A stretch of 64,000 nucleotides of DNA, from NCBI GenBank assembly GCA_040285745.1, contig JAUFOR010000008.1:248001-312000 (forward strand), written 5' to 3'. Origin of the DNA: Barthelona sp. PCE (Eukaryota). The notes beneath the pieces were generated by a model. It worked only from the letters and a program-made list of their open reading frames with translations. It searched no databases and was not told where the DNA came from. This document shows positions 1 to 43,961 of this stretch, piece by piece. The first letter of the stretch is position 1, and each line of letters begins with the position of its first letter. The position numbers and the translations under genes are program-made.

Positions 1-214
1 GGTAGAGACCCACAGTTAGTTAAAAATTACTAATTAAACTTTTTTTTTTTTCAATAAATTTTACAACCCCTAAATTAACTTATACAGCTTAATCATATAC
101 GCACACACAGTTACTGTACTATATATAACTCAAAAGCACTACTATTCTTTACTAATCGTTCATAGTTTTCTATGGGCATTAGTAGCAAATGGCCTCCACC
201 AAAACTTTTGAAAA

Positions 215-278
215 GGTAGCAGTGCTCCCGGCCTCGTCGATGCTAACGACGCGCTACTACCACTGAGCTACACACTCC
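215..278 (-). tRNA. Truncated tRNA-Ala(AGC)-like element, copy 1 (one extra base in the D stem)
   Basis: Same as copy 2, but the + strand reads gcgctactac instead of gcgctctac. Confidence 0.65.
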
Positions 279-635
279 AAACTCCAAATTGTTAGTTTGA
301 CGGAAAAGTTCAAGCCAAAGTGTCAAGTACCGTATTGGTTATTCACAATTTCCGGTCAGTTTTCTCCCCCATCTCACGTAATTAGAGGTTAAGTATATCG
401 AAAATAGTGGTATAATCAAACGGTAGAGACCCACAGTTAGTTAAAAATTACTAATTAAACTTTTTTTTTTTTCAATAAATTTTACAACCCCTAAATTAAC
501 TTATACAGCTTAATCATATACGCACACACAGTTACTGTACTATATATAACTCAAAAGCACTACTATTCTTTACTAATCGTTCATAGTTTTCTATGGGCAT
601 TAGTAGCAAATGGCCTCCACCAAAACTTTTGAAAA

Positions 636-698
636 GGTAGCAGTGCTCCCGGCCTCGTCGATGCTAACGACGCGCTCTACCACTGAGCTACACACTCC
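636..698 (-). tRNA. Truncated tRNA-Ala(AGC)-like element lacking the T-loop and canonical 3' acceptor strand, copy 2
   Basis: Minus strand reads G-GAGTGTG TA GCTC AGTGGTA GAGC G CGTCG TTAGCAT CGACG AGGCC GGGAG CACTGCTACC TTTT. Perfect A box/D arm, 5-bp anticodon stem with AGC, AGGCC variable loop; no GTTCRA. Confidence 0.75.
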
Positions 699-1056
699 AA
701 ACTCCAAATTGTTAGTTTGACGGAAAAGTTCAAGCCAAAGTGTCAAGTACCGTATTGGTTATTCACAATTTCCGGTCAGTTTTTCTCCCCCATCTCACGT
801 AATTAGAGGTTAAGTATATCGAAAATAGTGGTATAATCAAACGGTAGAGACCCACAGTTAGTTAAAAATTACTAATTAAACTTTTTTTTTTTTCAATAAA
901 TTTTACAACCCCTAAATTAACTTATACAGCTTAATCATATACGCACACACAGTTACTGTACTATATATAACTCAAAAGCACTACTATTCTTTACTAATCG
1001 TTCATAGTTTTCTATGGGCATTAGTAGCAAATGGCCTCCACCAAAACTTTTGAAAA

Positions 1057-1119
1057 GGTAGCAGTGCTCCCGGCCTCGTCGATGCTAACGACGCGCTCTA
1101 CCACTGAGCTACACACTCC
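1057..1119 (-). tRNA. Truncated tRNA-Ala(AGC)-like element, copy 3
   Basis: Identical to copy 2. Confidence 0.75.
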
Positions 1120-1478
1120 AAACTCCAAATTGTTAGTTTGACGGAAAAGTTCAAGCCAAAGTGTCAAGTACCGTATTGGTTATTCACAATTTCCGGTCAG
1201 TTTTCTCCCCCATCTCACGTAATTAGAGGTTAAGTATATCGAAAATAGTGGTATAATCAAACGGTAGAGACCCACAGTTAGTTAAAAATTACTAATTAAA
1301 CTTTTTTTTTTTTCAATAAATTTTACAACCCCTAAATTAACTTATACAGCTTAATCATATACGCACACACAGTTACTGTACTATATATAACTCAAAAGCA
1401 CTACTATTCTTTACTAATCGTTCATAGTTTTCTATGGGCATTAGTAGCAAATGGCCTCCACCAAAACTTTTTTGAAAA

Positions 1479-1541
1479 GGTAGCAGTGCTCCCGGCCTCG
1501 TCGATGCTAACGACGCGCTCTACCACTGAGCTACACACTCC
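1479..1541 (-). tRNA. Truncated tRNA-Ala(AGC)-like element, copy 4
   Basis: Identical to copy 2. Confidence 0.75.
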
Positions 1542-1898
1542 AAACTCCAAATTGTTAGTTTGACGGAAAAGTTCAAGCCAAAGTGTCAAGTACCGTATTG
1601 GTTATTCACAATTTCCGGTCAGTTTTCTCCCCATCTCACGTAATTAGAGGTTAAGTATATCGAAAATAGTGGTATAATCAAACGGTAGAGACCCACAGTT
1701 AGTTAAAAATTACTAATTAAACTTTTTTTTTTTTTCAATAAATTTTACAACCCCTAAATTAACTTATACAGCTTAATCATATACGCACACACAGTTACTG
1801 TACTATATATAACTCAAAAGCACTACTATTCTTTACTAATCGTTCATAGTTTTCTATGGGCATTAGTAGCAAATGGCCTCCACCAAAACTTTTGAAAA

Positions 1899-1961
1899 GG
1901 TAGCAGTGCTCCCGGCCTCGTCGATGCTAACGACGCGCTCTACCACTGAGCTACACACTCC
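1899..1961 (-). tRNA. Truncated tRNA-Ala(AGC)-like element, copy 5
   Basis: Identical to copy 2. Confidence 0.75.
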
Positions 1962-2318
1962 AAACTCCAAATTGTTAGTTTGACGGAAAAGTTCAAGCCA
2001 AAGTGTCAAGTACCGTATTGGTTATTCACAATTTCCGGTCAGTTTTCTCCCCCATCTCACGTAATTAGAGGTTAAGTATATCGAAAATAGTGGTATAATC
2101 AAACGGTAGAGACCCACAGTTAGTTAAAAATTACTAATTAAACTTTTTTTTTTTTCAATAAATTTTACAACCCCTAAATTAACTTATACAGCTTAATCAT
2201 ATACGCACACACAGTTACTGTACTATATATAACTCAAAAGCACTACTATTCTTTACTAATCGTTCATAGTTTTCTATGGGCATTAGTAGCAAATGGCCTC
2301 CACCAAAACTTTTGAAAA

Positions 2319-2381
2319 GGTAGCAGTGCTCCCGGCCTCGTCGATGCTAACGACGCGCTCTACCACTGAGCTACACACTCC
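2319..2381 (-). tRNA. Truncated tRNA-Ala(AGC)-like element, copy 6
   Basis: Identical to copy 2. Confidence 0.75.
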
Positions 2382-2738
2382 AAACTCCAAATTGTTAGTT
2401 TGACGGAAAAGTTCAAGCCAAAGTGTCAAGTACCGTATTGGTTATTCACAATTTCCGGTCAGTTTTCTCCCCCATCTCACGTAATTAGAGGTTAAGTATA
2501 TCGAAAATAGTGGTATAATCAAACGGTAGAGACCCACAGTTAGTTAAAAATTACTAATTAAACTTTTTTTTTTTTCAATGAATTTTACAACCCCTAAATT
2601 AACTTATACAGCTTAATCATATACGCACACACAGTTACTGTACTATATATAACTCAAAAGCACTACTATTCTTTACTAATCGTTCATAGTTTTCTATGGG
2701 CATTAGTAGCAAATGGCCTCCACCAAAACTTTTGAAAA

Positions 2739-2801
2739 GGTAGCAGTGCTCCCGGCCTCGTCGATGCTAACGACGCGCTCTACCACTGAGCTACACACTC
2801 C
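2739..2801 (-). tRNA. Truncated tRNA-Ala(AGC)-like element, copy 7
   Basis: Identical to copy 2. Confidence 0.75.
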
Positions 2802-3109
2802 AAACTACAAATTGTTAGTTTGACGGAAAAGTTCAAGCCAAAGTGTCAAGTACCGTATTGGTTATTCACAATTTCCGGTCAGTTTTCTCCCCCATCTCAC
2901 GTAATTAGAGGTTAAGTATATCGAAAATAGTGGTATAATCAAACGGTAGAGACCCACAGTTAGTTAAAAATTACTAATTAAACTTTTTTTTTTTTCAATA
3001 CATTTTACAACCCCTAAATTAACTTATACAGCTTAATCATATACGCACACACAGTTACTGTACTATATATAACTCAAAAGCACTGCTTGAAAATAAATGC
3101 TACTGAATA

Positions 3110-3290
3110 TTGCATACCGGCAATCCCTCCTGTGTAGTGCATGGCTGAAATGCCGTTTTAGCCGACGAGGTGTGCCGTTGATCACATTGACCACCCACAG
3201 GGTCTTACGTCATGCTCTTGAATGCAGGAAATCCGAGTACACATTAACAACAGACAGAAAAAGCGTTGCATTCATGTATCTTATTTTTTT
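3110..3290 (+). ncRNA. Candidate structured non-coding element flanking the array (unidentified)
   Basis: GC-richer island with stems 3128-3134/3196-3202, 3143-3151/3155-3163, 3169-3174/3183-3188 and 3219-3227/3266-3274, followed by a long T run. Confidence 0.3.
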
Positions 3291-3459
3291 TTTAATTTAT
3301 TTCTAATTTAAACATTAAATTAATTTTTCTTGTTTAAACTACTTTTTACAGCTTCAAAATTGTTATTTTACCATTCAATTTTCTATGATGACAACAAATT
3401 GATTATTAAATTGATACAAAAATGAATATGTGAGACGATTAACTGTAGTAAAAACTGTT

Positions 3460-5370
3460 TTATGATAATTCATTGTATTCAATAACACTAAAAGCCTCAA
3501 AAGTAGTGATTTCTGAAGTCATAAGAAACTCAATGATATTAATATCCCTCTGCTCATGCTCAATTTCGAAATTGTCAAAAGTATAAATGTGCATTCTTAC
3601 ATTGAATGCATCTAAACTATACTGCATTACAAATACACCAGGTGCAGGGGAATGGCATCTACAGACGTTTTTTGTATTCAGTGAACCGAGTTCCAGTTCC
3701 AGAGTCTGTGATATTATAGTGTCTACATTAGAAGTTTTGAATGCATGGATAATGTTTTTATAAATAAAAACACTCTTATCAATAAAGCATTTTCTGACGT
3801 TATATTCGGTAAAAACTTCCATATCTCTGCATATAATTAACTTATTATCTTCTACTTTATATCGAAAAAAAAAAGGCAAACATATACCAATACGAACTGT
3901 TTCTACGAATATCTCCTCATTTGCAAAAGGATTAACAGTCAAAGATTCAATTCTCCCCTCCAAAGTATGTGAACAAAATTTTAAACATCCAGTCTCTTTG
4001 CATAAAAATAAAATATTGATCGTTTGGTAATTGCTGTACCACAAAAAGTTACCAGAAATGATGGCATTATCAACATCGTTCAATCGTCTAGCATTTATGT
4101 ATGTTGATAAATTGTTGGTGTATAGTAAATGATCCTTGTTAAACATAATGTCATCACATGGATAACATTCTAACTGAAATAGCAGATCTAAGTCATCAGT
4201 GTACATGTTATATGTCTTAAAATCTTCTACAACGAGATACAAATTGCACCACTTCTTTTTGCGAATATCATACTCCCTGCGATAGTCCATCAGCGTACAG
4301 TTCTCAAAGAGTAAAGAAGAAATTAGCATTGTGCACGTGCCATTGTAAAAATCGAAATGAATGGGGGGAGTGAATGCACAGTTTCCTATGAGTTTGCTAT
4401 GAACAGCGAATAAGCCTTTAACTTGATGTTTAAACACCGGATAAAAGGTGGAACTCCCCGTAAAGGAATCATACTCAGTGCAAAAAAGTTCACCAGCAAT
4501 AGAAACGAAATTCCAATTTTCACAAAAAATTTCGCCATAATGTGTAACTTGATCAGGATTTATCACGGTAGAACCATACACACGCACAATTTCCAAAGTA
4601 AAATTACTTAAAAAGCTGTTTCTGTATCTCTTATTGCATGCTTGTAATACAGAAGCAGTAACATTATAGTATATAACGTTGTCGTCCTCAACTTTGCAAT
4701 AGCAGTAGTGGCCATTCTGCTCAATTATAAATCTATTATCTCCAGGAGTTCTGTCAATTGCGAAAAAAATAACATCTTTTAGAGGGTGCTTTTTAATGAG
4801 AAAAGGTAAGTTGTCAATAATTAAAAGGTACTGCAGTATTTTTTTTTCTGCCCAATCAACCAAATATGCAACTTCATCTTGAACAAAGAACGAATAAGTG
4901 CTGCTTCGAGAAGTTACTTGAGGTAAAGGCATGGACAATACCGTTTTTTGATCCTGCTTTAGATCAACTAAATCAATGCTGTCACCAAAGCATATTCTCA
5001 TCCACAGTCTGCTATTTATCATCACACCCTCTGAGCTGTAGCTTTCGGATCTTGGTACAATAAAATTTTCAACAAGAATGAAATTTCGTTCCATGAACTG
5101 GAACAGCTCAATCTTAATAGTTTCGCTATTAATGTACAGGGTTCGGTAAAAAACTTCTCCTTCCAGTAAAGTAGGTCTTAAACGATAACTAACATATGAT
5201 TTAATCCAGCATGGATTAACAGGAGAACTTTGTACGGCACCCTCCATGTGCTTGTCGATGAAACACAGTTCTACAGTGTTTAATCTTTCATCAGTGCTTC
5301 GAACAAGTATATTATCAGCATAACAAGAGAAAGAAAATTTTTCAGAGTGTCTAGAAATAGAACGTGGCAT
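3460..5370 (-). CDS. Hypothetical 636-aa beta-rich protein; paralog of 45561..47414
   Basis: Long ORF. Shares motifs with the paralog: MPRxI start, DRTPxxNRFI, WxFxSxxGExxCxEY, HSPxPG, DIxIIxFL. Confidence 0.85.
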   Translation of the reverse strand: MPRSISRHSEKFSFSCYADNILVRSTDERLNTVELCFIDKHMEGAVQSSPVNPCWIKSYVSYRLRPTLLEGEVFYRTLYINSETIKIELFQFMERNFILVENFIVPRSESYSSEGVMINSRLWMRICFGDSIDLVDLKQDQKTVLSMPLPQVTSRSSTYSFFVQDEVAYLVDWAEKKILQYLLIIDNLPFLIKKHPLKDVIFFAIDRTPGDNRFIIEQNGHYCYCKVEDDNVIYYNVTASVLQACNKRYRNSFLSNFTLEIVRVYGSTVINPDQVTHYGEIFCENWNFVSIAGELFCTEYDSFTGSSTFYPVFKHQVKGLFAVHSKLIGNCAFTPPIHFDFYNGTCTMLISSLLFENCTLMDYRREYDIRKKKWCNLYLVVEDFKTYNMYTDDLDLLFQLECYPCDDIMFNKDHLLYTNNLSTYINARRLNDVDNAIISGNFLWYSNYQTINILFLCKETGCLKFCSHTLEGRIESLTVNPFANEEIFVETVRIGICLPFFFRYKVEDNKLIICRDMEVFTEYNVRKCFIDKSVFIYKNIIHAFKTSNVDTIISQTLELELGSLNTKNVCRCHSPAPGVFVMQYSLDAFNVRMHIYTFDNFEIEHEQRDINIIEFLMTSEITTFEAFSVIEYNELS

Positions 5371-5467: not shown

Positions 5468-6571
5468 TTACTCTTCAGTTTTGATAACATCAAGGCCAGC
5501 TGCAGTCGCAGCAGATTCGTCATGGTAGAGTTTGACGCTGTCCGGAAGAGTGGAAAGCTCAATCGCCCACTTAGCGTCTCTTCTTTGTTCATAAGGCATG
5601 AGCTCGATATAAGTGTTTAGATTTGCTTTGAAGCGCTCGTTCTCCATGCATCTATCGGTTGCAATCCAGATTAGATTCTCAAAGCTGTCAAAAAAGGATT
5701 CTCTCACCTTGGAAACAAGTATCAAATCAACAATGACGTTCAACAGAACGTCAAAGTTCTCGTTGTCGTGCCAGCGCGCCACTTCAACGTCCTCCAGCAA
5801 AGGAAGAGTTGCTAGAAACATAGATATGAAGCGGTCACTGTATGCGCTGTTGGCCTCGTCGCTCAAGTGCTCTACAACGCCCCAAAAGTCAGGGGTGTTT
5901 CCAGTTTTCAAGTCACATACATATGAAACGAAGGGGAGGTGGCAGAACAAAGTGTCGTACTGCTTGTGTTCATAAAGTTCACAGTCTGTCATCATCATGG
6001 CCTCTGCTAGCGAGTTCTCCAGATCCCTCTCGTGTGTTAGCAGGTATTTAATCGGGAAATTAACTACAAAGTCCGTTAATGCTTTGGTATTCCTGCTGTG
6101 GAAGCAAAAATCAACGACAAGGTTAACGAGCAGCGTGCAGTAGCGTGTGACCCAGTACTGGCTTAACGACATCGCAATTGCAGCGCTGGTTATGACCTCG
6201 AGCTCAACATGACCAACAACCTCTGCAGCGTTGAACTCGCACAGTTTTGTGAGGCATGTGAGCAACTGGTGGATATAAATTGGTTGATGCTCATTGAATA
6301 TGGTTGTTACAGCGCGGAGTTGAAGAGACAAAATTGGAATGAGGCGCATAGCATCCAGATCCGACATTGAGAAAGTATGGGTGTCTAAGAAGAGCACAAT
6401 AAGCGCTACAACAGAGGCTCTTACCTCCATAGAATCACGGACGCCGAGTTCATCCACAAGAGCAGCGACATCAACAATATTTATATCAATCGTGTGTTCT
6501 GCGAACATCAGGTCCTTACAGTACTCCAGAATTTCGTTATCCGGCAGAGAATGCAGGTTGTAGAACGACAT
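5468..6571 (-). CDS. Hypothetical 367-aa helical (possibly ARM-like) protein
   Basis: Long ORF with ATG start; Leu/Val/Asp-rich; no recognised motif. Confidence 0.75.
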   Translation of the reverse strand: MSFYNLHSLPDNEILEYCKDLMFAEHTIDINIVDVAALVDELGVRDSMEVRASVVALIVLFLDTHTFSMSDLDAMRLIPILSLQLRAVTTIFNEHQPIYIHQLLTCLTKLCEFNAAEVVGHVELEVITSAAIAMSLSQYWVTRYCTLLVNLVVDFCFHSRNTKALTDFVVNFPIKYLLTHERDLENSLAEAMMMTDCELYEHKQYDTLFCHLPFVSYVCDLKTGNTPDFWGVVEHLSDEANSAYSDRFISMFLATLPLLEDVEVARWHDNENFDVLLNVIVDLILVSKVRESFFDSFENLIWIATDRCMENERFKANLNTYIELMPYEQRRDAKWAIELSTLPDSVKLYHDESAATAAGLDVIKTEE

Positions 6572-13289: not shown

Positions 13290-15347
13290 ATGGAAGAAAC
13301 CGATAGTTTTTTCGGTGAAACACCCACATTTAGACTTCAAGTCACAGATCCGTTGGACTTTTCCGTGGATGTCTCAACAGTAACTACATTGTTGCACGAA
13401 GTTTCATTTAAAGAGCGAAGAGACATATTTGGGACGCTTTTTCCAAGCATACTTGACATTACCAAATTTGGTCGCTTCTTTTTGGAGTCGAGCTCAGATA
13501 CTGAGTCACCTTTTGATTTTTCTCTTAAACAGAAGTTTTATCTTGAAATTATGGAATTATTGAATTCAACAAATAACAGGGGATACATCCAGAGCGTTTT
13601 TGCAGCGTTTGACCTTGAATCAATGAAGAAATTTGAATCATTAAGCAGAAATGGCGAGACTCTCACTGATATTCAAAAAGTTTTGAGTTTATTTTTGTAT
13701 TTTGGATTGGATTTAGTATCAGTAGGTGCAGTTTCACGTGCGTTTGTGCATGAAATCCTTTCGATAATTGGACGTTTGAAGTTGAATGTAGTTGCACAAG
13801 TTACTGCCTTCATTTCATATTTAAATTCCAGTATTTTCATTTTACTATCCCAAAACGTTAAGAATCTGGTGAAAATGGCATTCGTTGAGATGCAATCAGA
13901 AGACTTTATTTCCAGGAGTTTTGAAATGAAGGAGGTTCATATGCAGACTCTTGACAAACTCATATTTGTTCAATCACAACTTTATCAGGCAAACAGTGCG
14001 GAAAACGTAAGCGAGAACAGCTCAGGACAACGTGCATTCAAGTATCGCAACATTGATCTGAAATCAGGATTGGTGATGGAGAAACCCACTAACGGCGTCA
14101 TTCCTCATGAGATGTTTTTTTTTGACTTTCTGGAAGATATGTGCGAATCTGAGCACATATTTGGGCAATTCCTGCACTCCATGGATGATAACGACACTCC
14201 TAATGGAATGGTACTCATGCAGAGTTTCAATTTATTCCCTTCTGCATTGAAGGCAAAGATTCTGTCGCACGAAAACACAATCTTACAGCAGTCTACAGAT
14301 CGCAAGGAACTGTGCATTGATCGCAATAACTTGTTGAGGAGTGCAATCAACCAACTTGTCGTTGCAAGCAGTGCTGACGATATCAGTGGCCGTTTCCGTA
14401 TTAAATTCATGGGAGAGGCAGGCATAGACGAAGGAGGCTTGATTAGGGAGTTTTTCCAGCTAATCACTGACGAGCTTTTAGACCCCTCGTTTTTTATTTT
14501 CGAGCAGGAGGAAAACAATTTAATGTGGATCAACCCAGTGACTTTTGAGGACAATATGACGTTCCAGCTCATTGGAATTCTCATGGGTATTGCGATTTCT
14601 AACGACGTCACAGTCAATTTTCAGTTCCCAATTGTTTTTTATAAGAAACTTCTAGGAAGACCTGTGTTCACCGAAGACTTCAGGGAGATCAAACCAGTAA
14701 TGTACGACAGTATCATGAAGCTGCGGGAGTTCACTGCAGAAGAGATCGAAGCGACTTACTTGACCTTCGATGTCATACACGATTTCCCTGGTAGCGACAA
14801 AATCGAATCCCTTATCCCAGGCGGGTCAGAGATCCGGGTGACGAAGGAGAACGTTGATTTGTATATTGATAAATTAATCTCTTATTACTTGAACGATTCC
14901 ATTTCGGATAAGTTCAATGCCATTCGATTTGGTTTTGAGAAGGTCATGTGTAAGTCCAAGATGATTGGTCTATTCCATCCTGAGGAGTTAGAGAAGCTTA
15001 TATGCGGATTACCAAATTATAATGTTGAGGAACTTATTTCTTCATTCAAATACGTTGATTTTGAGAAAGATTGCGAAGCCATGGTATATTTCTTTGGACT
15101 TTTACGTAGTTTTGATATCGAAGAAATGAAACGTTTCCTTAAATTTATTACCGGTAGTGATAGAATTCCAATTGGCGGTTTTAACTCCAGACCCATCACA
15201 TTGCGACGCGTTGGCAATCAGAAGGCATTGCCCGTGGCGCACACATGTCAGTTGTTGCTTGATATTCCTGGATATCCTTCTCAAGAGATATGTGAGGCGA
15301 AGGTACGACTTGCCTTGCAACATTGCGACGGGTTTCATCTTATTTAG
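13290..15347 (+). CDS. HECT-domain E3 ubiquitin ligase
   Basis: FMGEAGIDEGGLIREFF, FLKFITGSDRIP and LPVAHTC (catalytic Cys), C-terminal GFHLI. Start set at MEETD after a T-rich leader; upstream in-frame ATG also possible. Confidence 0.93.
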   Translation: MEETDSFFGETPTFRLQVTDPLDFSVDVSTVTTLLHEVSFKERRDIFGTLFPSILDITKFGRFFLESSSDTESPFDFSLKQKFYLEIMELLNSTNNRGYIQSVFAAFDLESMKKFESLSRNGETLTDIQKVLSLFLYFGLDLVSVGAVSRAFVHEILSIIGRLKLNVVAQVTAFISYLNSSIFILLSQNVKNLVKMAFVEMQSEDFISRSFEMKEVHMQTLDKLIFVQSQLYQANSAENVSENSSGQRAFKYRNIDLKSGLVMEKPTNGVIPHEMFFFDFLEDMCESEHIFGQFLHSMDDNDTPNGMVLMQSFNLFPSALKAKILSHENTILQQSTDRKELCIDRNNLLRSAINQLVVASSADDISGRFRIKFMGEAGIDEGGLIREFFQLITDELLDPSFFIFEQEENNLMWINPVTFEDNMTFQLIGILMGIAISNDVTVNFQFPIVFYKKLLGRPVFTEDFREIKPVMYDSIMKLREFTAEEIEATYLTFDVIHDFPGSDKIESLIPGGSEIRVTKENVDLYIDKLISYYLNDSISDKFNAIRFGFEKVMCKSKMIGLFHPEELEKLICGLPNYNVEELISSFKYVDFEKDCEAMVYFFGLLRSFDIEEMKRFLKFITGSDRIPIGGFNSRPITLRRVGNQKALPVAHTCQLLLDIPGYPSQEICEAKVRLALQHCDGFHLI

Positions 15348-33668: not shown

Positions 33669-34400
33669 ATGGATCCGATTAAGCCTGACGAAAATCACCC
33701 CGCGCCGCTGTTTGACAGCATATTTAATGATGATGACAATGAAGAACAACAACTACACAAACAAAAGCATGTTTACTTTATGAAGCGTGCTCTAGATGCC
33801 GCTTTAAGAGCACTGAAGGTAGGAGAGGTGCCGGTGGGATGTGTTTTTGTGCGCAACAACCAGGTTATTGCTGAAGGGCATAACAATACAAACAAAACTA
33901 AGAATGCTACTCGTCATGCCGAAATCGAAGCACTGGATAAACTCCTATACGATAGGTCTATCCAGCCCTTTGAACACTCAACGATCAGAGAACAGCCAAT
34001 TAACAAAGATTTTGAGGATGTCGACGTATACGTGACCCTTGAGCCATGTATCATGTGTGCGGCTGCCCTGCGAAAGATGGGTTTCCGACGTGTTTTCTTT
34101 GGAGCATACAACGATAAATTTGGAGGTGCTGGTACAGTGCTTTCGATTTTACAGGATGAGAATCTGCCTGATAACATTGTCAATTGTATAGGAGGTCTCT
34201 GCCTCCACGAATGCATTGGAATCTTGCATAACTTCTACGAGCGAGGAAATTCCAACGCCCCAGAGAGCAAACGCAAGCGTCCCATTAGTTTTGGAGGTCT
34301 AGTGCTTAAAGGACAATTTGTAGATGATTATGACTTTGATGAGAATACTTTACAATCGTTAAAACAAGAAACAGACCCGGTAGAGCACATTTTTTTTTAG
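33669..34400 (+). CDS. ADAT2: tRNA-specific adenosine-34 deaminase catalytic subunit
   Basis: GEVPVGCVFV, NATRHAE, EPCIMC, NDKFGG and FYERGN motifs. Confidence 0.92.
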   Translation: MDPIKPDENHPAPLFDSIFNDDDNEEQQLHKQKHVYFMKRALDAALRALKVGEVPVGCVFVRNNQVIAEGHNNTNKTKNATRHAEIEALDKLLYDRSIQPFEHSTIREQPINKDFEDVDVYVTLEPCIMCAAALRKMGFRRVFFGAYNDKFGGAGTVLSILQDENLPDNIVNCIGGLCLHECIGILHNFYERGNSNAPESKRKRPISFGGLVLKGQFVDDYDFDENTLQSLKQETDPVEHIFF

Positions 34401-41608: not shown

Positions 41609-43075
41609 ATGCCTCCAAAGAACTCAAACACCAACGACAAGCCGAAGAAGAAGGCAGTTCCCGGTTTTATTCGAGAAATCCGCGAGAAGAATCCTGGACC
41701 TGTTTTCCCTGAAGCAGAGATGAACGAAGCCAAGGAAAAGATCGAAAAGATCAACGCCGAAGTGCAACAGATCAATGCTCAAATTGATGAAGCAAAGGCA
41801 ACTAGAGGTGGTGCTTTCGATGCTTTTAACGCTGCACGTGAACAATCTAACATTGTCAAGGGCGTCTTTGAGGAGCACCTCGCCGCCTTCAACCAACTCA
41901 AGACCCAAAAGACGGAGAGCCTGGAGAATGTTTCCTTCATGCTCAAGGATTATCGCGGTTTGAACCCTCGTTCGGAAGATATCATCGCCCGTGTCGAGCA
42001 GCTCATTGGTGAGAAGGAGCGCAGCATCCGTGACGATCAAATGTCCTCCGCCCAAAGAGATCGTCTTGCACGTGAGTGTGAGAAGATCCGTCGTCTGGTT
42101 CCTTCGCTTCGTGAACATCTTGTCTTGCTCAAGGAGACCAACAAGGTGTTTGAGGAGATGCAGAAGGCCCGTAAAGCCTTGAATCTTCAGAGAGATGAAG
42201 TTACAAGACTGAAGGAGGAGTTGCCTCAGATCGATGACACTCTTTTCGAAAGGAGAAAGGCGTTAAGGAAGCAGAAGGATGAGCTCTTTGCTGAGAAGAA
42301 GAACCTCTACGAGAGACACAAGGCTACTTTGAAGGAGCACGAGAAGAAAATCCAGAAGCTTATTGATCTCGAGAAGTCACAATGGCACGAACGTGTCATC
42401 AAGAACCTTGAGGCAAGCTTCGAGAAGCGTGAGCAGTTCCGTATGGAGAGATATCTCAAGGCCGAAGATTCCATCAAGGATAAGGAGTACTTCCAGAGCG
42501 AGTTGGACGATCTGGAGAGCATGATCACATACCTTCGTTCATTTACAACAGTTGATGCCTCCCAACCCGTTTCTACCACTGTCAAGAGCGTCGCACCTTC
42601 TGGTCGTACCATAATGACCAAGGGTAACATTCCTCAGAGAAACATTAGGAAGAAGTCAAAGCGTCGCAACAAGCAACGTACTCGCGGTGAGAGACCTGAG
42701 GTAATTCCTGATTTCTTATTCTTGTTCTCCACGTTTAAGATCCAACCCCCTTCTTCATGGGATGATCTTAACCGTTGCATTGATGATGTTCGTGTGAAGA
42801 AGAGCGATTTCAGAAAGAAGATTGACGAGAAGAGAGGCGAGAGCAAGGAATGGCTCAAGACTGTCGAGGCTGAAATTGAAGAGGATCGTAAGCAAGATCG
42901 TGAACAATTGGATGCCAAGATCAAGGATATCCTTGAGAAGAAGACAAAGGCCGCCGAGCAACAACAACAAAAGACTGAGGTTGAGGTTGTTGTTGAGGAG
43001 ACACCTAAGGAAGAAGAGGTTGAGCAAGAGATTGAGGTCGAGGCTGCTGAAGTCGTTGAGACTGTTGAGGAGTAA
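41609..43075 (+). CDS. Coiled-coil protein, possibly Bfr1/proton-pump-interactor-like
   Basis: Long K/E-rich coiled coil. YFQSEL..MITYL and F..FKIQPPSSWDDL...KKSDF segments resemble the Bfr1/PPI C-terminus. Confidence 0.6.
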   Translation: MPPKNSNTNDKPKKKAVPGFIREIREKNPGPVFPEAEMNEAKEKIEKINAEVQQINAQIDEAKATRGGAFDAFNAAREQSNIVKGVFEEHLAAFNQLKTQKTESLENVSFMLKDYRGLNPRSEDIIARVEQLIGEKERSIRDDQMSSAQRDRLARECEKIRRLVPSLREHLVLLKETNKVFEEMQKARKALNLQRDEVTRLKEELPQIDDTLFERRKALRKQKDELFAEKKNLYERHKATLKEHEKKIQKLIDLEKSQWHERVIKNLEASFEKREQFRMERYLKAEDSIKDKEYFQSELDDLESMITYLRSFTTVDASQPVSTTVKSVAPSGRTIMTKGNIPQRNIRKKSKRRNKQRTRGERPEVIPDFLFLFSTFKIQPPSSWDDLNRCIDDVRVKKSDFRKKIDEKRGESKEWLKTVEAEIEEDRKQDREQLDAKIKDILEKKTKAAEQQQQKTEVEVVVEETPKEEEVEQEIEVEAAEVVETVEE

Positions 43076-43139
43076 CATCTCTAGCTTTTACATAGCAATA
43101 AACATTTTGTTTTTATACCCTTTACATGTCTTTTTAAAG

Positions 43140-43961
43140 ATGAATTTAACAAACGAAGAGATTGAGCGGTACGACAGACAGCTCAAAATGTGGGGAGTAG
43201 ATGGACAAAGTAGTATACAGAAATCAGTTATTTATGTGGTTGGAGCAAAGAATATTGGAGCAGAAGTATGCAAAAATGCGCTCTTATCGGGCTCCACAGT
43301 GTTTTTATCAGATGATACTATGGCAGTAGAGGGAAAATTGCATTGGTTTTACAGATACGAGCAGGGAAACACAATAGCACAATGTTCCTATGAAGGTCTC
43401 AATGTACTGAACGAGTTTGCAACCTTGGAGATAGTCACACCCGGATCCTTTAATTTTAACCGGGTTTCGTTTTGTGTTTACACAGAATCTGATGTACAGA
43501 CAGCTTTGAGCTTAAGCAAAGCATGTAGAGAGACAGGGGCACATTTTATCTGGTGTTTCTGTAATGAAAATGAAGGTTTAGTATTCTTAGATGCACATAT
43601 TCATGAATATTCCACCAAACAAATTGAAAGTCGTGGTAGCAGAAGGATGAAGTACGTGCCATTGGACACAACGGTGGTTGATCGCATTCAAGAATTATTA
43701 TCAAATGATATTGAAATTTTTTCTCAACTGAATACTTCACAAATGTGCTTTTTAACAGGTACAATGATCGGTGCATATGCTTCTCAGGAGATTTTAAAAA
43801 CATTGACACACATTGAACAACCTATATATAATACTTTTCATCTGGACAATGAAAACAGGCCTGTAGGCAGGGTTCAGTTTATCGGTGAGGAGTTTTCGCA
43901 TGAGTACGTTAATGCAGAGGAGGAAGAAGAAGTACCCAGGACAATGCATGTATCATTGTAA
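43140..43961 (+). CDS. SAE1: ThiF-family E1 subunit, SUMO-activating enzyme subunit 1 (Aos1)-like
   Basis: LTNEEIERYDRQLKMWG, GAEVCKN and GAYASQEILK motifs; 273 aa from the ATG at 43140. Confidence 0.78.
   Translation: MNLTNEEIERYDRQLKMWGVDGQSSIQKSVIYVVGAKNIGAEVCKNALLSGSTVFLSDDTMAVEGKLHWFYRYEQGNTIAQCSYEGLNVLNEFATLEIVTPGSFNFNRVSFCVYTESDVQTALSLSKACRETGAHFIWCFCNENEGLVFLDAHIHEYSTKQIESRGSRRMKYVPLDTTVVDRIQELLSNDIEIFSQLNTSQMCFLTGTMIGAYASQEILKTLTHIEQPIYNTFHLDNENRPVGRVQFIGEEFSHEYVNAEEEEEVPRTMHVSL

Follow-up and report, generated by a model that had tools for sequence, protein, structure and literature searches.

The array and its tRNA-Ala(AGC) piece

We analyzed a 64-kb stretch of DNA (64,000 nucleotides [nt]; referred to below as the window) that opens with a head-to-tail tandem array, each full unit of which carries on its minus strand the 5' part of a gene for a transfer RNA (tRNA), tRNA-Ala(AGC). 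Tandem Repeats Finder reported a period of 420 bp, 7.3 copies, 99% matches and a score of 6095. After splitting at an anchor, we obtained full units of 421, 421, 420, 421, 421, 420 and 420 bp, which start at 1, 422, 843, 1263, 1684, 2105 and 2525, with an incomplete 140-bp unit (2945 to 3084) at the end. The initial annotation had proposed a tandem array of ~420-bp units at 1 to 3084, and Tandem Repeats Finder and the unit alignment both bore this out. Since the array reaches window base 1, it may extend further, and 7.3 copies is a minimum. The array has a G+C content of ~36%, is overlapped by no open reading frame (ORF) of at least 200 amino acids and passes into unique DNA at 3084 through a clean junction. 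The array and the seven tRNA pieces are as follows.

1 to 3084, no strand assigned: tandem array of seven full units and a 140-bp partial unit (Tandem Repeats Finder, unit split and alignment)
211 to 277, minus strand: copy 1, tRNA piece at 225 to 277 and trailer CACTGCTACCTTTT at 211 to 224; the 3' strand of its D stem holds one extra nt, and Rfam does not list this copy
632 to 697, minus strand: copy 2, tRNA positions 1 to 53 at 646 to 697 and trailer CACTGCTACC plus TTTT at 632 to 645 (Rfam tRNA, 26.2 bits, E 0.02)
1053 to 1118, minus strand: copy 3, tRNA piece at 1067 to 1118 and trailer at 1053 to 1066 (Rfam)
1475 to 1540, minus strand: copy 4, tRNA piece at 1489 to 1540 and trailer at 1475 to 1488; the A run past the first run of four T residues (T4) is six long, not four (Rfam, alignment)
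1895 to 1960, minus strand: copy 5, tRNA piece at 1909 to 1960 and trailer at 1895 to 1908 (Rfam)
2315 to 2380, minus strand: copy 6, tRNA piece at 2329 to 2380 and trailer at 2315 to 2328 (Rfam)
2735 to 2800, minus strand: copy 7, tRNA piece at 2749 to 2800 and trailer at 2735 to 2748 (Rfam)

The units are nearly identical. Variation was confined to 12 of the 425 columns of the unit alignment and consisted mostly of differences in the length of T or C runs; the remaining differences were three substitutions (columns 57, 58 and 287) and the single-base insertion of copy 1 (column 259). About three substitutions and one indel in 3 kb, run lengths aside, indicate recent amplification or active homogenization. 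Within a single unit there were no notable repeats, with an 11-nt direct pair and A/T-rich inverted pairs of 10 to 14 nt as the largest found, and a blastn comparison of the unit with the remaining window gave matches of 11 to 20 nt only (E of at least 2.8), so that the other 61 kb holds no dispersed copy. The array is therefore head to tail, noncoding and highly identical from unit to unit, as expected of satellite DNA. An assembly artefact, in which a long-read assembler spun out a short repeat at a contig end, would account for copy differences that lie mostly in homopolymer lengths, the usual long-read error, and for an array that reaches the window start. However, such an artefact would not be expected to give copies with substitutions of their own and an insertion, or a clean junction to unique DNA, and we regard it as scarcely credible.

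Read on the minus strand, all seven full units contain GAGTGTG, TA, GCTC, AGTGGTA, GAGC, G, CGTCG, TTAGCAT, CGACG, AGGCC and GGGAG in direct succession. This piece of 52 nt corresponds to standard tRNA positions 1 to 53, with the anticodon AGC and with G3 present, and it is followed by CACTGCTACC, TTTT, CAAAAG and a second TTTT; in copy 4, CAAAAAAG replaces the usual sequence in the trailer region. The initial annotation had read the units in the same way, with tRNA positions 1 to 53 on the minus strand and a break where T54 should start, followed by CACTGCTACC, TTTT and a second T run, and this description held for all seven full units, allowing for the extra base in copy 1 and the variant copy 4. 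The parts of a cytosolic tRNA gene that are present are the D arm (GCTC/GAGC), the anticodon arm (CGTCG/CGACG around TTAGCAT) and the A box TAGCTCAGTGG. A T arm with its T-loop, and with it the B box GGTTCGANNCC, is missing, since GGGAG is followed by CACTGCTACC. A 7-bp acceptor stem with a 3' strand is also missing, and the best substitutes are a stem of 5 bp (AGUGU/GCACU) or one formed with the T run that contains a mismatch.

Covariance searches gave the same picture. Six of the seven pieces matched the Rfam tRNA model (RF00005) at 26.2 bits (E 0.02), with high posterior values over model positions 1 to 46, while none of the seven reached the gathering score of 29 bits and copy 1 was unlisted. 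In the T-arm region, the alignment has 9 nt where the model has 15, and the likeness to a tRNA ends at position 53. Rfam found nothing in the array beyond the tRNA piece at E values up to 10 and had no matches at gathering level in the whole window; standard ARAGORN likewise called no tRNA gene in the window. When thresholds were lowered or introns allowed, ARAGORN returned a "tRNA-???" with a 4-base anticodon, a 97-nt tRNA-Phe and a tRNA-Pro with a 334-nt intron, all of which we rejected as implausible.

We compared the piece with an intact tRNA-Ala(AGC) gene at positions 604 to 678 of a metagenome contig (L001), which was fetched by an exact match to the anticodon arm, so that 25 of the compared bases were forced by the search pattern. 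The intact gene is the same as the piece from GTGTAGCTCA to CGACGAGG save for one extra A in the D-loop (counted by eye). The matched stretch begins where the acceptor strand ends and stops where the variable loop starts; beyond it, the intact gene continues into a normal T arm. This identity shows that the array piece is genuinely part of a tRNA-Ala(AGC) gene, of which it retains the 5' three quarters without decay. The metagenome gene itself sits in an ordinary packed tRNA cluster (514 to 755) of Tyr(GTA, with an intron), Ala(AGC) and Asn(GTT) genes that are 0 to 2 nt apart, on the sole contig returned by the search with the anticodon-arm word. The 24-nt junction at the break had no match in metagenome contigs, viral contigs or prokaryote genome contigs.

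Origin and boundary of the array

The array is probably a young, homogenized satellite that was amplified from a segment with a truncated tRNA gene, and the tRNA piece is then a passenger and not a working tRNA. A tRNA-derived satellite was one of three readings offered in the initial annotation, and it is the one that fits the head-to-tail order, the 99% homogeneity, the lack of coding capacity, the absence of the T arm and B box and the presence of one damaged copy. In this history, a rearrangement or insertion would have cut a tRNA-Ala(AGC) gene at the start of the T-loop, a segment of ~420 bp with the remaining 5' 52 nt would then have been amplified head to tail, and unequal exchange or gene conversion would hold the copies near identical. 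The working tRNA-Ala(AGC) gene would lie elsewhere in the genome. The array, its homogeneity, the truncation, the missing B box and T arm and the one damaged copy are observed directly; we infer the order of these events, the absence of transcription and the intact gene elsewhere. Because the A box is kept but the B box, T arm and 3' acceptor strand are lost, good TFIIIC binding, abundant synthesis and charging would not be expected. Recent amplification or homogenization also explains an undecayed piece without invoking selection, and the one damaged copy among the seven indicates that single copies are not protected.

Codon usage in the window is relevant to the predicted gene elsewhere. In the 29 long ORFs of the window, 485 of the 914 alanine codons are GCT or GCC, a usage that calls for a working decoder of GCY codons, which the broken piece cannot be. 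The window also encodes a 243-amino-acid protein (33669 to 34400, plus strand) with cytidine/deoxycytidylate deaminase and MafB19-like deaminase domains, of the Tad2/ADAT2 fold. Judged by its domains, this protein could be a Tad2/ADAT2-type A34 deaminase that edits tRNA-Ala(AGC), and its presence in one window with the array is probably a coincidence. Taken together, the GCT and GCC codons and a deaminase of this fold lead us to expect a working A34 tRNA-Ala elsewhere.

Several observations weigh against a simple passenger-bearing satellite. The 52-nt piece is flawless, with four of four D-stem pairs, five of five anticodon-stem pairs, U8, A14, G18 G19, U33 and the A box all kept, which implies either a very recent origin or selection. 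The break coincides exactly with a domain border, and two T4 runs come after it, a layout like that of an RNA polymerase III (Pol III) gene. Neither ARAGORN nor Rfam found an intact tRNA gene within the 64 kb. The end of the array, at 3084, does not coincide with the tRNA break, which is therefore more than just the duplication junction. Finally, the break and the end of the array share a short inverted word, which points to a more specific event.

3079 to 3087, plus strand: 9-mer AGCACTGCT across the junction at the end of the array; also found across every tRNA break on the minus strand, for example at 639 to 647

This word occurs nine times in the window (at the seven breaks, at the end junction and at 14367) versus 0.48 occurrences expected, and no shuffle reached nine. 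As a result of its orientation, this 9-bp word flanks the last 346 bp of the array as an inverted repeat. These matches hint that the tRNA break and the array boundary arose from one kind of event at one short word, for instance template switching or cutting at short inverted repeats.

A retroposon origin was also considered. In this alternative, a short interspersed nuclear element (SINE)-like retroposon with a tRNA head, a body of ~170 nt and a tail of 12 or 13 A residues would have been amplified in tandem together with ~180 bp of flanking DNA. The putative tail is present in every unit.

461 to 472, plus strand: T12 run (T13 in one unit), corresponding to a minus-strand run of 12 or 13 A residues ~225 nt downstream of the tRNA piece; one per unit, with the others at 40, 882, 1302, 1723, 2144, 2564 and 2984

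Reading by eye, we found AGTTT both before the head and after the A run, and SINE-derived satellites exist (PMC10702118). A direct repeat of 5 nt is, however, within chance. The head is without the B box required by SINEs, the would-be transcript contains T4 runs, no copy is dispersed in the rest of the window, and none of its 29 long ORFs encodes a reverse transcriptase or, for that matter, a transposase. A retroposon origin is therefore very unlikely, and we retain the satellite amplified from a broken tRNA gene as the favored origin.

Two other stretches have some resemblance to tRNA-Ala. The first occurs once per unit on the plus strand (798 to 893), where GGTATAATCAAACGGTAGAGACCCACAGTTAG is weakly similar to the 5' part of tRNA-Ala and runs into the run of 12 or 13 T residues. 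As many as 17 of 500 shuffles scored as well, and this was one of six comparisons, after which the likeness is not significant. The stretch could be what is left of an older tRNA that has decayed, or else a short Pol III unit. The second lies 45 bp past the array (3128 to 3203, plus strand), head to head with the array pieces, and contains TGTGTAG, TTAGC and CGACGAGG in tRNA order. It is collinear with tRNA-Ala positions 4 to 46 and has a 7-bp end closure (TCCTGTG/CACAGGG). With lenient scoring, its score was reached by 0 of 1,000 shuffles and 0 of 161 real chunks, and with stricter scoring by 57 of 2,000 shuffles and 10 of 161 chunks. Rfam gave one noise match and no tRNA in 3085 to 3330 at E values up to 10. 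This stretch may be a decayed tRNA-Ala gene, or the likeness may be due to chance. It lies in a G+C-richer island (~3100 to 3283) that ends at a T10 run (3284 to 3293). The DNA between it and the array (3085 to 3127) was tried as an inverted, decayed copy of the unit and rejected, since 184 of 300 shuffles scored as well.

Possible RNA products of the array

We considered whether the units could be multiple copies of a Pol III gene for a small RNA derived from tRNA-Ala, an armless tRNA mimic, with transcription that starts at the A box, perhaps aided by a B-like word, and terminates at the T4 runs. The unit retains an intact A box, TAGCTCAGTGG, the tRNA piece is undecayed, and two T4 runs lie 10 and 20 nt past the break in all seven copies. 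Six T4 runs are found on the tRNA strand of each 421-nt unit, and at this frequency the T4 run 10 nt past the break is not informative. The B box downstream of the A box is the main anchor of TFIIIC in the systems studied. No B-box word was found past the A box on the minus strand of the unit, and the one B-like word is on the other strand.

728 to 736, plus strand: GTTCAAGCC, the one word in the unit that resembles a B box; it lies 31 to 39 nt upstream of the 5' end of the piece, on the other strand from the A box

By our own arithmetic, ~0.1 such words per unit are expected by chance.

Folding predictions also bear on an armless mimic. The initial annotation had noted that GCACT in the trailer can pair with AGTGT in the acceptor strand and had proposed a fold in which a loop replaces the T arm. 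The complementarity is real, but the fold is not favored. The structure with the AGUGU/GCACU stem has a free energy of -14.1 kcal/mol versus a minimum free energy of -22.3 kcal/mol for the 66-nt candidate RNA, a difference of 8 kcal/mol, and the acceptor pairs have a probability of 0.0. The most stable fold has the trailer paired to the D-loop region and not to the acceptor strand. This best fold is itself unexceptional for its composition (z score of -1.15), and 28 of 200 shuffled sequences fold at least as well. ARAGORN in its metazoan-mitochondrial mode called an "mtRNA-Ala(agc)" in all three units scanned, but on a weak acceptor stem different from the one proposed. The acceptor structure drawn from ARAGORN and Rfam has a free energy of -8.3 kcal/mol, with three G-U pairs, three Watson-Crick pairs and one mismatch, and it uses the terminator T run.

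The D stem is damaged in one of the seven copies, and the copies are so nearly identical that they hold no covariation signal to assess. We conclude that a small RNA gene of this kind is quite unlikely; the armless mimic suggested by the initial annotation finds no support in the fold energies, and a tRNA is called only by the lax mitochondrial mode. In the eukaryotic nucleus, we know of no RNA of such a truncated tRNA-Ala kind. More broadly, the array may be a multicopy gene for a nuclear RNA of ~60 to 66 nt, in which the acceptor 5' strand and the D and anticodon arms are combined with a tail and terminator of its own, and which would be driven by an A box without a B box and would serve as a trans-joined 5' piece or as a mimic. 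We consider this very improbable.

The trans-joined version was also put forward in the initial annotation. Here the array would supply the 5' half of a split tRNA-Ala, the 3' half would be encoded elsewhere and joined to it in trans, and the trailer CACUGCUACC would pair with a complementary leader. The known split tRNA genes come from archaea, and the known permuted ones from a few algae; to our knowledge, neither kind is known from metamonads. The clean break at 53/54, the 10-nt trailer ahead of the T run and the presence of G3 of the alanine identity pair are what a 5' half should have. The searches for its partner, in contrast, stayed at chance level. The predicted T-loop and 3' strand, TTCRANTCTCCC, had 37 matches with up to two mismatches in the window versus 31.5 expected, and the sole exact match (3946) is inside an ORF and continues as CTCCAAAG, not CACAYTC. 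The complement of the trailer, GGTAGCAGTG, was found outside the array only with a mismatch, three times versus 2.2 expected. No tRNA-like match was present in 3085 to 64000, where the three weak Rfam matches at E values up to 10 included no tRNA. Moreover, nothing would explain why at least seven copies of one half are retained. With no partner for the proposed half within the window, we find a split tRNA extremely improbable. The two bold readings, an armless mimic and a trans-joined half, have a slim chance even when counted together.

Chromosomal setting and known systems

Outside the array, 86.5% of the window consists of long ORFs on both strands, the first of which is 376 bp from the array. 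The domains found are those of housekeeping proteins and include kinases, a HECT ligase, an M18 peptidase, a P4 ATPase, a class II aminoacyl-tRNA synthetase, DNA polymerase B and XRN1. The M18 peptidase, encoded 13 kb from the array, is 60% identical to PCE1_000787 of Barthelona sp. PCE, which lies on a contig of 2,128,580 bp; the next best match is 34% identical. The two genes nearest the array (3460 to 5370 and 5468 to 6571, both on the minus strand) encode products with no Pfam domain. The sole outside relative of the first product is PCE1_002702 of Barthelona sp. PCE (766,953-bp contig), at 25% identity, and from this comparison the gene adjoining the array looks like a lineage-specific, fast-evolving one. 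On these matches, we assign the window to a barthelonid-like metamonad with a compact, gene-dense genome. We tried synteny with Barthelona sp. PCE as a guide to the position of the array, which failed since PCE1_002702 and PCE1_000787 are on different contigs. Elsewhere in the window, two long ORFs on the plus strand (41609 to 43075 and 42912 to 43961) overlap by ~160 bp, and the second has a ThiF-family start; together they may represent a single gene that appears divided because of a frameshift, an intron or a sequencing error.

By analogy with the tRNA arrays of Entamoeba, the array could have a structural role in the chromosome, as a satellite at a chromosome end or centromere that buffers the end, substitutes for a telomere or provides a platform for the kinetochore, with the tRNA piece as a relic of its origin. 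This possibility does not conflict with the satellite reading, to which it adds a role. The array reaches window base 1, as it would at a contig end, and its own contig, at 2,170,504 bp, is the size of a chromosome. The genome of Barthelona sp. PCE comprises 10.2 Mb in eight contigs, only two of whose ends carry a telomere repeat, the odd TATATGGTCT (PMC11316075). In the main text of that paper, on Barthelona and Skoliomonas genomes, the word "tRNA" is not mentioned. Speaking against a structural role, the window contains no telomere-like repeat and TATATGGTCT is absent from it, housekeeping genes adjoin the array, the repeated gene families usual near chromosome ends are missing, and only 3 kb of the array is visible. 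We therefore hold a structural role to be unlikely.

If the array is a passenger-bearing satellite, as we favor, it offers a small, clear-cut case of a tandem repeat seeded by a broken Pol III gene, and it would be a useful marker for the chromosome structure of barthelonids, a deep-branching group whose chromosome ends are odd and barely described. If it is found to lie at the ends of chromosomes, tRNA-based end arrays would have a second, independent instance after Entamoeba. If it is transcribed, it would bear on Pol III transcription driven by an A box only and on split and armless tRNAs in eukaryotic nuclei. We found no report of a truncated-tRNA array in metamonads, and a review of satellite DNA does not mention "tRNA."

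Among systems with armless or split tRNAs, the likeness is limited. The T-armless tRNAs of nematode mitochondria keep the acceptor, D and anticodon arms, while a loop replaces the T arm; their acceptor stem has 7 bp, and they are charged. Those tRNAs are organellar, whereas the array piece is nuclear, and its acceptor stem of at most 5 bp is disfavored by 8 kcal/mol. In the split tRNA genes of Nanoarchaeum and the permuted ones of Cyanidioschyzon, the 5' part is apart from the 3' part and has an extra tail that is able to pair. In those systems one half is not amplified in tandem, and the array has no partner in the window.

Tandem repeats that contain tRNA sequence are closer. The variable-number tandem repeat at human 1q23.3 contains tRNA sequence and has been discussed as a chromatin boundary and not as a source of tRNA, but it is a vertebrate repeat with a 7.3-kb unit that includes whole tRNA genes and a CTCF site, versus 420 bp here (PMC4041453). 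The closest known cases are SINE- and tRNA-derived satellites and the tRNA arrays of Entamoeba. The SINE-derived satellites of squamates are likewise tandem repeats built from portions of tRNA-related Pol III elements; they have modest copy numbers, and a subtelomeric position has been suggested for them (Vassetzky et al. 2023, PMC10702118). Those satellites come from known dispersed SINE families, while the array described here contains an undecayed fragment of a tRNA gene and not a SINE head. In Entamoeba, also an anaerobic protist, short tandem units are built around tRNA sequence, and the arrays are at one of each chromosome's ends, where a structural role was proposed and is now reported (Tawari et al. 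2008, PMC2652664; 2026 preprint, 10.64898/2026.07.06.736064). Entamoeba units, however, hold one to five intact tRNA genes, some with 5S or small nuclear RNA genes, and are the main cellular source of tRNA, whereas each unit here has a single truncated piece in place of an intact, expressed tRNA gene. The array thus behaves as a tRNA- or SINE-derived satellite and is Entamoeba-like in form only.

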